Source of the DNA: Promethearchaeota archaeon
GTDB taxonomy: Archaea > Asgardarchaeota > Lokiarchaeia > Sigyniarchaeales > SOKP01
Assembly: GCA_029838195.1 (NCBI GenBank)
Contig: JALGVJ010000044.1
Location: forward strand, 1 to 27,515
Direction of reading: 5' to 3'
Length of the DNA stretch: 27,515 bases
Within the stretch, counting starts at the first letter, position 1; every line of letters starts with the position of its first letter. Below, piece by piece: positions 6,744 to 22,515 of the stretch. The notes under the pieces are model-generated. The model was not told the DNA's origin. It did no database searches and worked only from the letters and a program-made list of their open reading frames with translations. A program made the translations under genes and the position numbers.

Positions 6744-9416
6744 TCATTTCTCTTGAAGCTTGGCTCTTAAAATAGAGGGAAGAATACCTTTATTTCTATA
6801 ATATTCGAGTTCGACGGGGGTATCCAAGCGAGCTTTAACTGAAAATGTTAATGTCTTGCCTGTTTCCGAGAGAGCATGAACAATTAATTCTTTTCCAGGA
6901 GTAAGATTTGGCAAACCTAAAATGTCATAGGTTTCCGTACCATCAAGATTTAATGTCTGGATGTTTTCTCCTTGTTTAAATTGAAGAGGTAAGACACCCA
7001 TGCCAATCAAATTACTTCGATGTATTCTTTCATAAGATTCTGCGATAATAGCTTTTATTCCTAATAACTGTGTCCCTTTGGCAGCCCAATCCCTTGAACT
7101 TCCCATTCCATAATCTTTTCCGGCAAGAATAATTAGAGGGATATTTTGTTTCTGGTAATTCATGGCAGCTTCATAAATCGACATGATTTCTCCCGTTAGA
7201 TGATATTTTGTCCAGCCTCCTTCCTTATTTACTAAATGATTTTTAAGACGAATATTCGCAAAAGTGCCTCTCATCATGATCTCATGATTACCACGTCGAG
7301 AACCAAAGGTATTAAAATCTTCCGGTTTTATTCCTCTTGAAATTAAATATTGTCCTGCGAGGGAGTCTTTGAGAATAGCTCCTGCTGGAGAAATATGATC
7401 AGTCGTCACGCTATCTCCTAATACGGCTAAAACTCGAGCATTTTTAACGTCGCTTAAAGGAGGAATTTCAAGCGAAAAATCTTGGAAAAAGGGTGGCTCA
7501 CGAATATAAGTGGAATTTTCTTCCCATTGATAAATTTCTGTTAATAGAGGATTTAATTCATTCCACTTGGTCCAACCTTGAAAGACATTCGCATATTCTT
7601 TTTGAAATATTTCTTTAGTGAGATATTTATTCATGATTTCAAGAATTTCTTTTTTAGTTGGCCAAATATCTCGCAAATAAACAGGCTTACCCTCTTTATC
7701 TTCTCCTAGTGGATCTTTTTCTAAATTTATCGCAATGGTACCCGCTATGGCATGAGCAATTACTAATGGCGGAGAAGCAAGATAATTGGCTTTCACGTTA
7801 GAATTGATTCTACCCTCGAAATTTCGATTACCGCTGAGAACAGCTGACACGATTAAATCCTTCTCTCTAATCTCTTGAATGAGAACCTCATCAATCGGGC
7901 CGCTATTTCCTATGCACGTAGTACATCCATAAGCAACCACGTGAAAGCCTAAATCTTCAAGATACTTCATTAAACCAGATTTTATTAAATAGGTGGTAAC
8001 AGTGCGAGAGCCCGGTGCAAGGCTCGTTTTTACGTGGTTTTTAACCTTTAATCCTTTTTCTACTGCTTTTTTCGCTAATAATCCCGCCCCAATCATGACA
8101 TGAGGATTAGAAGTATTTGTACAAGACGTAATAGCGGCGATCACGACGGCGCCATGACCCAATTCCTTGCCATCCGATAAGTTTTTAACCCCATTAGGTT
8201 TATTGAAGGTTGTTTTTAAATGATCGATAAACTCTTGTTTCATGTCTCTTAATAGCACTCTTTCTTGAGGACGTTTTGGACCCGCCATGCTTGGATGAAT
8301 CTCATTTAAATTAATTTCGATAATTTCGTTATATTCTGGTGGAAAGGTGTCTTGATCATGAAATACTCCCATGTTTTTTAGAATAATTTCTATAGCATTC
8401 ACCTGACTAACCTCTCTTCCCGTTTTTATCAAATATTTAATGGTCTCCTTATCCGTGGGAAAAAATCCCATGGTAGCCCCATATTCGGGCGCCATGTTCG
8501 CAATGGTCGCTCTATCTTCCAGAGATAATTCTTTTAATGCGGGGCCAAAAAATTCCACAATTTTTCCCACGACTCCGTGGTCACGGAGTATTCGGGTTAT
8601 AGTTAAGACGACATCTGTTGCAGTAATATTTTCTTGCATTTTTCCGGTAAGTCTAACTCCTACTATTTTAGGAACGAGCATGTAATAAGGTTGATTTAAC
8701 ATGACGGCTTCGGCTTCAATTCCTCCAACACCCCATCCTACAATGCCTAAACTATTTATCATTGTAGTGTGGGAGTCCGTGCCAAGTAAAGTATCAGGAA
8801 AAGCAATGAGTTCCTCCTTAATTTTTTTCAGATGGATAACTTTAGCAAGATATTCTAAATTAATCTGATGACAAATCCCTTTACCGGTAGGGATCAATCG
8901 GAAATTTTCAAAAGCATTTTGCGCCCATTTTAAAAAAGTATATCTCTCTTTATTTCGATCCATTTCCATTTTTTCATTTTTTTCCATTGCGTCCTTCGAG
9001 CCAAAAAAATCGACTTGAACGGAATGATCGATGATTAAATCGACAGGCATGCTGGGATTTATTTTAGAGGGATCCCCATTCCATCGAGCCATGGCACTTC
9101 TCAAGGCCGCAAGATCGACCATAACAGGAATGCCTGTAAAATCTTGAAGTAAAATTCGAGATGGTATGAATGGAATTTCTTTTTCCTCTATGGACTCAGA
9201 ATCCCACTTTGATATAGTGAAAACATGCTCACTCGCTATTCGTTTACCATCCAGATTTCTGATGACATTCTCTAGCAAGATTCTTAAAGAATAGGGGTAT
9301 TTTCCAATGGGTCCCATCCCTATATCTTCAACTTTTCGTAGATTATAAAAAGAGACAAGTTCATTTCCAATTTTTATTGTTTCTTTAATCTTCTGCTGGA
9401 TAGCTCTTTCTTCCAT
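6744..9416 (-). CDS. acnA: Aconitate hydratase A
   Basis: Motifs LQDFTG, IDHSVQVD, GTDSHT, AAITSCTNTSNP, GCTTCIGNSG, SGNRNFEGR, TTDHISPAG and GSSRDWAAKG; 890 aa. Confidence 0.97.
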   Translation of the reverse strand: MEERAIQQKIKETIKIGNELVSFYNLRKVEDIGMGPIGKYPYSLRILLENVIRNLDGKRIASEHVFTISKWDSESIEEKEIPFIPSRILLQDFTGIPVMVDLAALRSAMARWNGDPSKINPSMPVDLIIDHSVQVDFFGSKDAMEKNEKMEMDRNKERYTFLKWAQNAFENFRLIPTGKGICHQINLEYLAKVIHLKKIKEELIAFPDTLLGTDSHTTMINSLGIVGWGVGGIEAEAVMLNQPYYMLVPKIVGVRLTGKMQENITATDVVLTITRILRDHGVVGKIVEFFGPALKELSLEDRATIANMAPEYGATMGFFPTDKETIKYLIKTGREVSQVNAIEIILKNMGVFHDQDTFPPEYNEIIEINLNEIHPSMAGPKRPQERVLLRDMKQEFIDHLKTTFNKPNGVKNLSDGKELGHGAVVIAAITSCTNTSNPHVMIGAGLLAKKAVEKGLKVKNHVKTSLAPGSRTVTTYLIKSGLMKYLEDLGFHVVAYGCTTCIGNSGPIDEVLIQEIREKDLIVSAVLSGNRNFEGRINSNVKANYLASPPLVIAHAIAGTIAINLEKDPLGEDKEGKPVYLRDIWPTKKEILEIMNKYLTKEIFQKEYANVFQGWTKWNELNPLLTEIYQWEENSTYIREPPFFQDFSLEIPPLSDVKNARVLAVLGDSVTTDHISPAGAILKDSLAGQYLISRGIKPEDFNTFGSRRGNHEIMMRGTFANIRLKNHLVNKEGGWTKYHLTGEIMSIYEAAMNYQKQNIPLIILAGKDYGMGSSRDWAAKGTQLLGIKAIIAESYERIHRSNLIGMGVLPLQFKQGENIQTLNLDGTETYDILGLPNLTPGKELIVHALSETGKTLTFSVKARLDTPVELEYYRNKGILPSILRAKLQEK

Positions 9417-19816: not shown

Positions 19817-19974
19817 ATGAAAAAACAAGAAAAAGACATGATTTATCCTTCAATAATCCATTGGTCTTATGGCATTGGAGGGTTTCTTACTAATTTTACG
19901 AACACTGCTTAAGCAACTTGACCAAGGAAAAAGTTGAAAAAAACCACAAGATCTTGTTAGAATTAGGACTATGA
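19817..19974 (+). pseudogene. Internally deleted MFS (GPH/MelB-like) transporter remnant
   Basis: 19817-19912 reads MKKQEKDMIYPSIIHWSYGIGGFLTNFTNTA*, like an MFS first helix. 19915-19974 in another frame reads NLTKEKVEKNHKILLELGL*, like a GPH-transporter C-terminus. Confidence 0.6.
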
Positions 19975-20125
19975 AAGAAAAGGTGCGTCATCACCCAGAT
20001 CAGGGTTCATGAAGCCCGATCTTCATAAAAAAGCCATTTTCCTTTCTACTTTTTTCACGATTTTTAAATATTTTATTTGGATGGTATTGAAATGAAAACT
20101 ATATTTAATTAATTTAATCAAGATC

Positions 20126-20142
20126 AATAAAAATTTAAATTA
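20126..20142 (+). promoter_or_regulatory. Putative BRE/TATA promoter for the leader-cimA transcript
   Basis: An A-rich AATAAAAA is followed by TTTAAATT (20134-20141), ending 23 nt before the ATG at 20165. This predicts a start site at or near that ATG (leaderless mRNA). Confidence 0.5.
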
Positions 20143-20164
20143 TGAAATGCATTAATCATTATAA

Positions 20165-20239
20165 ATGAATGAAAATATAATAATTCCTAGAATCATTAGC
20201 ATCATTATTTGTATTATAGGGATTATTAAAATTCATTAA
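20165..20239 (+). CDS. Isoleucine-rich leader peptide (MNENIIIPRIISIIICIIGIIKIH), putative attenuator uORF of cimA
   Basis: ATG at 20165 to TAA at 20237-20239. 13 of 24 codons are Ile (8 ATT, 3 ATA, 2 ATC), with no Leu, Val or Phe. It ends about 100 nt upstream of citramalate synthase. Confidence 0.8.
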   Translation: MNENIIIPRIISIIICIIGIIKIH

Positions 20240-20307
20240 GAGAATTTTAACCTCTTTTTCCCTTTCTCATGAGATTCTCATGCCTTTTTGGGTTAAAATT
20301 TTCTTTT
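20218..20307 (+). promoter_or_regulatory. Attenuator-like RNA with alternative stems
   Basis: 20226-20234 can pair with 20242-20250 (9 bp). Alternatively 20238-20252 can pair with 20291-20305 (15 bp, one G-U). There is an inner hairpin at 20268-20282 and pyrimidine/U tracts at 20253-20267, 20283-20289 and 20299-20307. Confidence 0.65.
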
Positions 20308-20340
20308 ACAAAATAAATAACATTATATCAAAATATAAGG

Positions 20341-21951
20341 TTGAAAAGCATGATGGATGAAAACGTGTTGATATATGATTCCACCCTTCGAGAAGGATGC
20401 CAAAAATCGGGTATAACGTTTTCAGTGGATGATAAATTAAGAATTTTGGAGAGATTAATTGAAGACCTTCAGATTCCCATGATCGAATTGGGGTGGCCAG
20501 GATCGAATCCTAAGGATCTTAGCCTTTATAAAAAGATTGACAACATGAACCTTGGAAAATCGAAGATTTTTGCTTTTGGAAGCACGAGAAGAAAAAATAT
20601 TGACGTAAAAGAAGATAAGTACATCCAAGCATTAGTTGCCTTAGGAATTAAACACGCAACGATTTTTGGAAAAAGTTGGGATTTACATGTCACGGACGCC
20701 TTGGAAACTACATTAGAAGAAAATCTCAACATGATTGAAGATACCATTCTATACTTAACTAAAAATGGCGTTGAGGTCATCTATGACGCAGAACATTTTT
20801 TTGATGGCTTCAAGCATAATAAAAAATATGCATTAGAAACCATTTCTTGCGCAATAAATGCTGGTGCCTCTTGGATTGTATTATGTGATACGAACGGTGG
20901 CTTACTCCCTCATGAGATACCCCCCATTTTCAAGGAAGTACGAGAACACCTGGGAAAAGTCCCATTAGGTATTCATGCTCATAATGATTCTGGCATGGCA
21001 AATGCAATTGCAATAGAAGCATTTTTAAATGGTGCTCGAATGATTCAAGGTACCATGAATGGTTTTGGAGAACGATGCGGAAATACAGACTTAACAACCA
21101 TTCTTCCTATCCTTAAATTGAAGATGGGAGTAAATTGCATATCAGAGGATTCCCTTAGGAATCTAACAAAGGTTTCTGGATTCATTTATGAACAAGCGAA
21201 TTTACCACACGTCGATGATCAACCTTTTGTGGGAAAGAATGCTTTTGCTCACAAGGGTGGGGTGCATGTTTCCGCCATATTAAAAAATGTGAAGACATAT
21301 GAACACATAGATCCTGAACTTGTTGGAAATAGACGCAACATGAAAATCTCCGAATTGTCAGGAAAAGCCTCCATTTTAAATTATGCGAAAAAATTTGGAA
21401 TTCCTTTAACGGAGGATAATCCGAAAATTCCTGCCATTCTTGAAGTAATTAAAGAAAAAGAACGCTTAGGTTATTCCTATGAAGGAGCAGAAGGCTCTCT
21501 AGAGATCATCATGCGAAGCATGGATATGAACATCCAAGATCCCGATTATTACCGTAAAAAATTTTTTGAACTGGAAGGTTTTAGAGTATTCACGGAAATG
21601 TACAAGGATAACTTGTTATCGGAGGCAACCATAAAAGTGAAAGTGAGTGGGGAAGAACACCATACAGTAGCGGAGGGAAATGGCCCAGTTCATGCATTAG
21701 ATAATGCCCTTAAAAAGGCTCTGCTTCATTTTTATCCCAGTTTAAATGAAATTAGTTTAACAGATTTTAAGGTACGAATTACGAATCAAGCGGGGACTGC
21801 TTCCGTTGTGAAGGTATTAGTTGAGACGGAAGATAAAGAGGCGAAATGGGGCACTGTAGGAACGCATGAGAATATAATTGTTGCTTCCTGGTATGGATTA
21901 GTAGATTCCTATATTTATAAGTTATTGAAAGATAAAATTCGATCAACGTAA
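20341..21951 (+). CDS. cimA: Citramalate synthase (bacterial-type CimA of the LeuA/DRE-TIM family); start probably the ATG at 20350 or 20353
   Basis: DSTLREGCQ, GWPGSNPKD, FGSTRR, GKSWDLHV, YDAEHFFDG, LCDTNGG, HAHND, GFGERCGN, AFAHKGGVH and SELSGK, plus a LeuA-type allosteric C-terminal domain (EGNGPVHALD). The GKSW/DAEHFFDG/AHKGG set marks the CimA clade rather than 2-isopropylmalate synthase. Confidence 0.88.
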   Translation: MKSMMDENVLIYDSTLREGCQKSGITFSVDDKLRILERLIEDLQIPMIELGWPGSNPKDLSLYKKIDNMNLGKSKIFAFGSTRRKNIDVKEDKYIQALVALGIKHATIFGKSWDLHVTDALETTLEENLNMIEDTILYLTKNGVEVIYDAEHFFDGFKHNKKYALETISCAINAGASWIVLCDTNGGLLPHEIPPIFKEVREHLGKVPLGIHAHNDSGMANAIAIEAFLNGARMIQGTMNGFGERCGNTDLTTILPILKLKMGVNCISEDSLRNLTKVSGFIYEQANLPHVDDQPFVGKNAFAHKGGVHVSAILKNVKTYEHIDPELVGNRRNMKISELSGKASILNYAKKFGIPLTEDNPKIPAILEVIKEKERLGYSYEGAEGSLEIIMRSMDMNIQDPDYYRKKFFELEGFRVFTEMYKDNLLSEATIKVKVSGEEHHTVAEGNGPVHALDNALKKALLHFYPSLNEISLTDFKVRITNQAGTASVVKVLVETEDKEAKWGTVGTHENIIVASWYGLVDSYIYKLLKDKIRST

Positions 21952-22032: not shown

Positions 22033-22515
22033 TTAAGAGATTGTATCTAAATCTCTTAATTCAATAGGAGAACCTCCAAATATCGTATAAATCAAGTACT
22101 TTGCCGATTCATTTTCAAAATCTGCTCCCCGCTTGTAAACCATAAAGTCCATACTGTCACCATGGCCTAATCGAACAATATAGCCTTGTTTTCTTAAATC
22201 TGAATATATATATTTATACCACAATCTATCATCAAATTGGGTAAAGTAGGACAACAAGCTCTCGAAGTCGTGTTGTTTTTTATTTTTATCATTATTTTCC
22301 AATAAAAGGATTCTTTTTCTCTCGCATAAGAGCAAGACCTTAATTGGTTCCAATATTAATACTTATTTACTTTTATCTCTTTGTTCAAGAGTTCCAATAT
22401 AAAAATTTTTATAAAACTCGTCAATTCCCTTCTTATCGTAAATTATAACTTTATCTTTTTCAATTATTCCTTTAATTTGAGTTTTTTCAAGTTTTACTTC
22501 CGAATTCCCACTCAT
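22033..22515 (-). pseudogene. endA: tRNA-splicing endonuclease (EndA-like) pseudogene
   Basis: The ATG at 22515 (MSGNSEVK...EFYKNFYIGTL) is in frame with the 22353 ORF but interrupted by TAA at 22365-22363. It has EndA-like LEPIKVLLL, YIYSDLRKQGYIVRLG, DFMVYKRG and AKYLI, and stops early after ELRDLDTIS. Confidence 0.75.

Follow-up and report, generated by a model that had tools for sequence, protein, structure and literature searches.

The isoleucine-rich open reading frame situated immediately upstream of the citramalate synthase gene cimA in the 27,515-bp stretch of contig JALGVJ010000044.1 of an Asgard archaeon (Promethearchaeota) analysed here (hereafter the window) very probably acts as an isoleucine sensor that is read by the ribosome, i.e., as a ribosome-gated attenuator of cimA, judging from its codon content and from a leader RNA that is predicted to consist of three conserved helices (P0, P1, and P2; Table 1). 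As the best explanation overall, and with moderate confidence, the interval around the leader stop codon is regarded as the expression platform of this isoleucine-sensing leader-peptide attenuator. That its output is the formation of transcript 3' ends, and not translation or decay, is likewise slightly favoured, whereas the polarity, in which the closed fold would lead to premature 3' ends and a stalled ribosome to read-through, is assigned by analogy and only tentatively.

Table 1. Features of the cimA leader region and of two further leader open reading frames (ORFs) in the same genome; positions refer to the window unless a contig is given.
Feature	Position	Strand	Remarks
Putative promoter	20126..20141	+	A-rich BRE-like run and TATA-like TTTAAATT (20134-41)
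Leader ORF	20165..20239	+	24 codons, MNENIIIPRIISIIICIIGIIKIH; 13 Ile codons
P0 5' arm	20165..20170	+	AUGAAU; start codon and probably RNA 5' end; pairs with 20231-36 (RNAalifold)
P1 5' arm	20179..20187	+	AAUAAUUCC; Ile-Ile-Pro codons; pairs with 20219-27 (RNAalifold)
P1 3' arm	20219..20227	+	GGGAUUAUU; Gly-Ile-Ile codons (GGRAUUAUU); overlaps AGGGA and the start of segment 1
Segment 1	20226..20234	+	UUAAAAUUC; common to P1/P0 and the alternative 1:2 hairpin
P0 3' arm	20231..20236	+	AUUCAU; ends one base 5' of the stop codon of the window (RNAalifold)
P2 5' arm (segment 2, alias S3)	20238..20253	+	overlaps leader stop codon TAA (20237-39); RNAalifold
P2 loop	20254..20289	+	pyrimidine-rich; U5 at 20255-59 and U5 at 20285-89; window-specific hairpin at 20268-82
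P2 3' arm (segment 3, alias S4)	20290..20305	+	U-rich 3' half continues into T4-C-T4 (20299-20307)
Shine-Dalgarno-like motif of cimA	20337..20344	+	AAGGUUGA; GGUG/GAGG/GGAGG-like motifs at the same place in most orthologues
cimA, citramalate synthase	20350..21951	+	TIGR00977 equivalog, 686.9 bits (cut-off 450)
Trp-rich short ORF	G000:C38:2967-3059 (locus L026:2967-3059)	-	…MSTLLINSWRWQWQWR; 174 nt upstream of a TrpB-like enzyme (NF009057, 643 bits)
Leu leader ORF	G000:C19 ~6920-7052 (L192 ~1193-1325)	+	seven terminal Leu codons (TTA x7, TAA)

With respect to single-residue enrichment, the leader ORF ranks second among 3588 intergenic short open reading frames (sORFs) with a downstream gene (binomial 1.5e-7), and only 6 of the 43,380 sORFs in the genome contain at least 50% Ile. 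An Ile leader was found at all 27 cimA loci of the family for which sufficient upstream DNA exists. Across relatives its length is 17-24 codons and its form is M-K/N-x-I-I-P ... I-I-G-I-I-stop, with the Pro and Gly codons spaced by 7, 8, 9 or 10 codons in the first twelve loci and with every length difference in frame. The pooled peptides of the 27 leaders are composed of 53.8% Ile as against 4% Leu, 3% Val, and 1% Phe, which points to a codon signal and not to general hydrophobicity. In genome G004 (L008 / L094), the stop codon of the cimA leader is lost via a net insertion of 3 nt, and the frame stays open over 57 codons through P2, ending 5 nt before the cimA start; this open frame may reflect either a changeover to translational coupling or an error in the assembly.

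An A-run and a TATA-like octamer occupy roughly positions -34 to -23 relative to the leader ATG in most of the 27 orthologous loci, and a T is common at position -1. In the window, the TATA-like TTTAAATT ends 23 nt 5' of this ATG; together with the similar spacing in most relatives, this distance suggests a leaderless mRNA, such that the cimA leader transcript is probably leaderless or nearly so, with its 5' end at the leader AUG.

The gene cimA, whose product catalyses step 1 of the pyruvate route to isoleucine, starts 110 nt 3' of the leader ORF in a genome with a G+C content of 33.5%. It is patchily distributed, being carried by 30 of the 135 genomes of the family, and its nearest homologues outside Promethearchaeota records are almost all bacterial (46-53% identity), which suggests that the cimA type of this Asgard family was acquired by transfer. 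Convergent with cimA, an ORF of 106 amino acids (22033-22353, minus strand) exhibits a weak match to the tRNA-intron lyase EndA (35.7 bits; cut-off 59.6), of which it is a short or partial copy.

Helix P2 corresponds to the 2:3 stem of an initial annotation of this DNA, in which AAGAGAATTTTAACC (20238-52) was paired with GGTTAAAATTTTCTT (20291-305). This pairing was recovered with 15 bp including one G-U, and the stem does begin within the TAA as claimed, namely at the second base of the stop codon. It ranks first among the 33 inverted repeats of the whole window. The RNA from 20165 to 20350 folds with -37.6 kcal/mol, compared with -25.4 +/- 3.5 kcal/mol for 200 shuffled sequences (z = -3.47), none of which was as good; its minimum-energy fold includes the long 2:3 stem and a second long hairpin across the leader ORF, and the 1:2 hairpin of the initial annotation is absent from it.

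P2 is kept in all 28 orthologous leaders, with compensatory substitutions as well as insertions; matched insertions in both arms are found in four genomes, and a change to UUCU paired with AGAA in one genome. Its predicted energies range from -8 to -20 kcal/mol. According to the duplex predictions, between 7 and 41 nt lie between the arm ends across orthologues, and this variable spacing fits an RNA helix and not a dimeric DNA operator. All three helices (P0, P1, and P2) were also predicted by RNAalifold on an unfitted MAFFT alignment. In the 28 sequences aligned to the covariance model, 93.1% of the cells are paired, as compared with 31-58% when partners are slid. Double changes occur at eight pairs (19 cells), and the covariation score was reached by none of 500 shuffles; this alignment was fitted to the model and all of its sequences are related members of one family, so that covariation is limited in extent and the sequences cannot be counted as independent. 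The covariance model (R1) matched 28 of the 151 genomes of the order, all of them with cimA, once each and in every case directly upstream of this gene; no match was found in other families or upstream of other genes of these 151 genomes. A search of Rfam with 19900-20500 revealed no match near the gathering score of any family.

Concerning the helices that enclose the leader ORF, P0 (consensus AUGAAN with NUUCAU) is 94% paired in the 28 sequences, and its sixth pair covaries (A-U/U-A/U-G). The equivalent UUCAU is situated directly 3' of the stop codon in most orthologues; TTCAT is invariant in sequence sets A1 and A3, with TTCAA in two sequences of the larger set. In P1, the facing third-codon positions are invariant or covarying (U-A 17, U-G 7, A-U 2, C-G 1). 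Both helices use segment 1 and thereby compete with the 1:2 pairing. A ribosome on the leader ORF, whether translating or stalled, must open P0 and P1. The initial annotation had rightly stated that the ribosome position must change the fold of the leader RNA; however, it took 1:2 as the competitor under ribosome control and overlooked P0 and P1, which the ribosome certainly controls. It also remarked, and we agree, that the sequence alone cannot tell which of the folds is on and which is off.

In the window itself, TTAAAATTC (20226-34) is the exact reverse complement of GAATTTTAA (20242-50), and the resulting 1:2 hairpin of 9 bp reaches z = -3.9 against shuffled partner segments. Its described extension by AGGGA (20218-22) with TCCCT (20259-63) exists as well, but in this window only. 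In the other 27 orthologues, z is near 0 (mean over all 28, window included, +0.2). The relatives possess a 6-bp core AAUUUC:GAAAUU in a different register, complete in 17 of the 28, with predicted energies of -1 to -4 kcal/mol as against -8 to -20 kcal/mol for P2. Across orthologues 1:2 is 90% pairable without any covariation, and the sole polymorphic base of segment 1 covaries with its partner in P0 and not with segment 2. Mutually exclusive 1:2 and 2:3 pairings as the switch thus find no comparative backing outside the window, and 1:2 was rejected as a robust conserved antiterminator given its z near 0 in the other 27, its other register, and its zero covariation. Segment 1 is foremost the 3' arm of P0/P1, as follows from the same observations and from the polymorphic base that follows P0, and 1:2 is a possible third partnership for it. 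Set beside the four-segment attenuators, with their mutually exclusive 1:2, 2:3, and 3:4 helices and conserved antiterminator, the equivalents of 1:2 (P0/P1) and of 3:4 (P2) are conserved with compensatory changes, and the antiterminator equivalent, i.e., the 1:2 hairpin of the initial annotation, is pairable without covariation.

The loop of P2 exhibits a mean pyrimidine content of 0.76 in the 28 orthologues, whereas random upstream windows of 37 nt in the host genome have 0.49 +/- 0.11 and only 0.4% of them reach 0.76. A run of at least four T within 12 nt after the P2 5' arm is found in 20 of 28 loci (background 18%); a run of at least five T at or after the 3' arm is found in only 6 of 28 orthologues. 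These counts, together with the leader of a sister family described below, place the best-conserved U-tracts inside the helix and not after it. The pyrimidine and U tracts that the initial annotation saw enclosed by 2:3 are thus conserved across orthologues far above background. The small hairpin CATGAG-att-CTCATG is present where it was reported (20268-82), but only in this window; followed by CCTTTTT, it was also the sole terminator-like match in a scan for bacterial-type promoters and terminators. A GC-rich hairpin directly followed by a U-run, which defines the bacterial-type intrinsic terminator, is not found here, P2 being AU-rich. The constituents of the archaeal U-tract signal are present, i.e., U4-U5 tracts in the nascent RNA (U5 20255-59, U5 20285-89, and T4-C-T4 20299-307 in the window) and a factor gene in the genome. 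The claim that termination would here proceed via U-tracts and aCPSF1/FttA accords with an archaeal genome in which the factor is encoded at full length (TIGR03675, 887.8 bits; cut-off 580.2; G000:C54:50252-52135); a KH-less beta-CASP paralogue is encoded in addition (263.6 bits, model positions 172-627). As a general claim, however, the hiding of U-tracts by 2:3 does not hold: P2 can have no effect on intrinsic termination at tracts that are made before segment 3. Since the U-tracts of the loop are transcribed before segment 3, shielding by P2 could matter only to a factor that acts behind the polymerase.

When the early Ile codons were masked in ribosome-constrained folds, P2 was still part of the minimum-energy structure of 11 of the 12 orthologues as soon as its 3' arm had been made, so that the 2:3 stem, presented in the initial annotation as one of two alternatives, looks nearly constitutive. 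The last Ile codon lies about 10 nt before P2 in most orthologues, and a ribosome stalled on this codon was therefore rejected as a means of sterically masking P2 in most of them; in the window, it is partly possible that a stalled ribosome covers a portion of the P2 5' arm.

Leader-peptide attenuation is a textbook bacterial mechanism that needs coupling of transcription and translation as well as hairpin terminators, and archaeal termination proceeds via U-tracts and a homologue of CPSF73. As in classical attenuators, a short ORF of cognate codons is situated immediately upstream of the biosynthetic gene, and this linkage is conserved across relatives. In the reading preferred here, a pioneer ribosome would load on the leaderless mRNA before P0 forms, after which the start codon would be closed off by P0. 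As long as a ribosome is on any part of the leader, it would hold P0 and P1 open, and both would shut only once it is done; the number of slow Ile codons would then set the time for which the helices stay open while the polymerase crosses the U-tracts. With plentiful isoleucine, or without translation, P0/P1 and P2 would be closed and premature 3' ends would arise at the U-tracts in and just after P2. With a ribosome stalled on the early Ile codons, segment 1 would be free to hold the P2 5' arm (1:2), and in the window the stalled ribosome would also cover part of this arm directly. If P2 is delayed by either effect, the polymerase would proceed into cimA. Whether in such a scheme the translating ribosome gates the access of aCPSF1/FttA, a CPSF73-type nuclease, to the U-tracts between the conserved helix arms is doubtful, although possible.

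Several points count against the attenuator of this polarity: the antiterminator-like 1:2 pairing is weak and does not covary outside the window, P2 persists with masked early codons in 11 of 12 orthologues, the better-conserved U-tracts, located in the loop, are already transcribed by the time P2 is able to form, and, with about 10 nt between the last Ile codon and P2, a stalled ribosome does not cover P2 in most orthologues. We know of no need for hairpins in archaeal termination. Because 1:2 is weak and the U-tracts are located within the loop, the opposite polarity stays in play. In it, the loop U-tracts would be aCPSF1/FttA sites and P2 an anti-terminator that locks the flanking RNA, including the cleavage zone in its 3' arm, and termination would take place when the P2 5' arm is occupied, whether by segment 1 or by a ribosome that has reached the stop codon. 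This polarity would account for conserved U-tracts that are enclosed by P2 instead of following it, as are the two U5 runs in the loop of the sister family, and the overlap of the leader stop codon with the P2 5' arm in the window fits it, too. The encoded aCPSF1 belongs to a factor that binds U-tracts through its KH domains and cleaves downstream of them (PMC8716108). Yet segment 1 would be freed by an early stall, i.e., under starvation, and cimA would then be turned off, a response opposite to that expected of a biosynthetic gene; a ribosome that has arrived at the stop codon reaches, in most orthologues, just the first bases of the P2 arm, and 1:2 is not conserved as a stable helix, such that this opposite polarity appears rather unlikely.

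A post-transcriptional output, by which a stalled ribosome as opposed to closed P0/P1/P2 would alter the lifetime of the mRNA or the translation of cimA, is judged less likely still. The pairing of the very 5' end and start codon in P0, the KH-less beta-CASP paralogue, and the leader frame of G004, which reaches to 5 nt before the cimA start and suggests translational coupling, would agree with it, and the cimA ribosome-binding site is predicted to become slightly less accessible (from 0.54 to 0.46) when P2 is blocked. This accessibility, however, is insensitive to the position of the ribosome on the leader (0.54, 0.52, and 0.50), on which ground a translational switch was rejected; a specific pairing of the loop with the Shine-Dalgarno motif was discarded as well, with cognate pairs (-10.0 kcal/mol) no better than non-cognate (-10.3), reversed (-10.6), or shuffled (-11.1 kcal/mol) controls, and the 5' end would be shielded in both states. 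It is very improbable that no sensor exists at all and that the region instead comprises a small hydrophobic peptide with a terminator-like hairpin of its own, protein-binding DNA palindromes, or an RNA that binds a ligand or tRNA directly. The peptide is indeed hydrophobic, and the P2 arms are AT-rich palindromic motifs with a common AAUU core; but its hydrophobic residues are almost only Ile (54% vs 4% Leu, 3% Val, and 1% Phe), synonymous positions that take part in pairing are under constraint, the arm spacing of 7 to 41 nt is unlike that of a dimeric DNA operator, the RNA element is associated one-to-one with cimA and has no Rfam match, and the genome also has a Trp leader ahead of a Trp gene and a Leu leader ahead of a Leu gene.

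Among known systems, the leaders ilvL (of ilvGMEDA), ivbL, leuL, and thrL share with the cimA leader an ORF of end-product codons just upstream of the first biosynthetic gene and RNA segments with alternative partners, the fold being picked by the progress of the ribosome. Despite this general similarity, the cimA leader differs from them in being archaeal, in its probably leaderless mRNA, and in a start codon that lies in a helix. It possesses no GC-rich hairpin with a U-run as terminator; instead, a long AU-rich helix encloses, and does not precede, the best-conserved U-tracts, the equivalent of the antiterminator is weak, and there is no similarity in sequence or covariance model. With tnaC of E. 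coli (Rho) and the Salmonella leaders of mgtA and mgtCBR it has in common that the leader ORF ends beside an unstructured, purine-poor tract on which a factor could load, access to this tract being possibly gated by ribosome position or by an alternative fold. The factor at the cimA leader, however, would be aCPSF1/FttA, a CPSF73-type nuclease, and not Rho, and whereas tnaC senses free Trp via the nascent peptide and turns a catabolic operon on, sensing of starvation at the codon level is expected for cimA. The U4-U5 tracts in nascent RNA and the encoded factor gene are shared with the aCPSF1 (FttA) terminators of Methanococcus maripaludis and Thermococcus kodakarensis; to our knowledge, the known sites of this factor mark the ends of transcription units, and we know of none at which a translated leader or flanking helices act as a gate. 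In the ermC and ermA leaders of Bacillus and Staphylococcus, too, the stalling of a ribosome within a short 5' ORF changes the folding of a hairpin further downstream, and the stalled ribosome stabilises the mRNA and can protect it from 5'-to-3' decay. There, the stall is induced by a drug and exposes a ribosome-binding site, whereas the predicted accessibility of this site is unchanged at the cimA leader.

A full-text literature search for leader-peptide attenuators in archaea found bacterial examples only, and the cimA leader very probably gauges amino-acid supply in a way that has so far been described for bacteria alone. New are the two ORF-enclosing helices P0 and P1, the finding that conservation extends to 2:3 but not to 1:2, and the conserved U-tract and pyrimidine loop of P2. 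Gating of FttA, if true, would give Archaea their first case of regulated premature termination that responds to an amino acid; the lineage concerned is the one closest to eukaryotes, and the design would have arisen independently of the hairpin terminators of bacteria. The three-helix leader constitutes a mutable system for the question of whether ribosome-polymerase coupling regulates archaeal genes; it also bears on the modulation of U-tract or FttA termination by RNA structure and on the sensing of amino-acid supply in Asgard archaea. The arms of P0, P1, and P2 and the U-tracts are direct targets for compensatory mutagenesis.

Differently sequenced leaders are found elsewhere. In GC-rich Asgard families with cimA, no leader was found. 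In a sister family (L023, L024, L106, L025), an Ile-rich leader of 35-37 codons (…GLIIIIISIILNLIIC / …GLGLIIIIISIILNLIIC) precedes cimA; the first Ile codons are the pairing partner of its start codon, and two U5 runs are enclosed by a helix adjacent to the stop codon. The L106 genome consists of a single contig of 6.04 Mb. Within the host genome, the Leu leader is located around 175 nt upstream of a match to a leuA-like gene. Beginning at its stop codon, CCCCCTCCTT pairs with AAGGGGGGG around 45 nt further on, followed by ATTCTTTTT; this helix is GC-rich with a long loop and is followed by U5, and a nearer GAGGG constitutes an alternative partner. A Thr/Ala-rich sORF, MILQAFAAFTTPTTAAITTATLFL (G000:C93:15799-15873, minus strand, locus L027), is situated 129 nt upstream of a gene of 320 amino acids for which no NCBIfam match was found.

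The Trp-rich sORF upstream of trpB2, ending in WRWQWQWR-stop, is the third most enriched intergenic sORF of the genome and is conserved in relatives, the orthologous trpB2 loci L034-L056 mostly possessing leaders of the form W-x-W-x-W-x-W. Visual inspection of these loci suggests a helix with strong covariation between the nucleotides immediately preceding the ATG and those immediately following the stop codon, often with T6-T8 after it. Furthermore, a conserved near-palindrome, TATTGAATTCCAATA, flanked by GTGCA…ACAC, is situated around 60 nt before the trpB2 start at L033-L056; it is present even at trpB2 loci that lack a Trp leader and could be an RNA hairpin or an operator.
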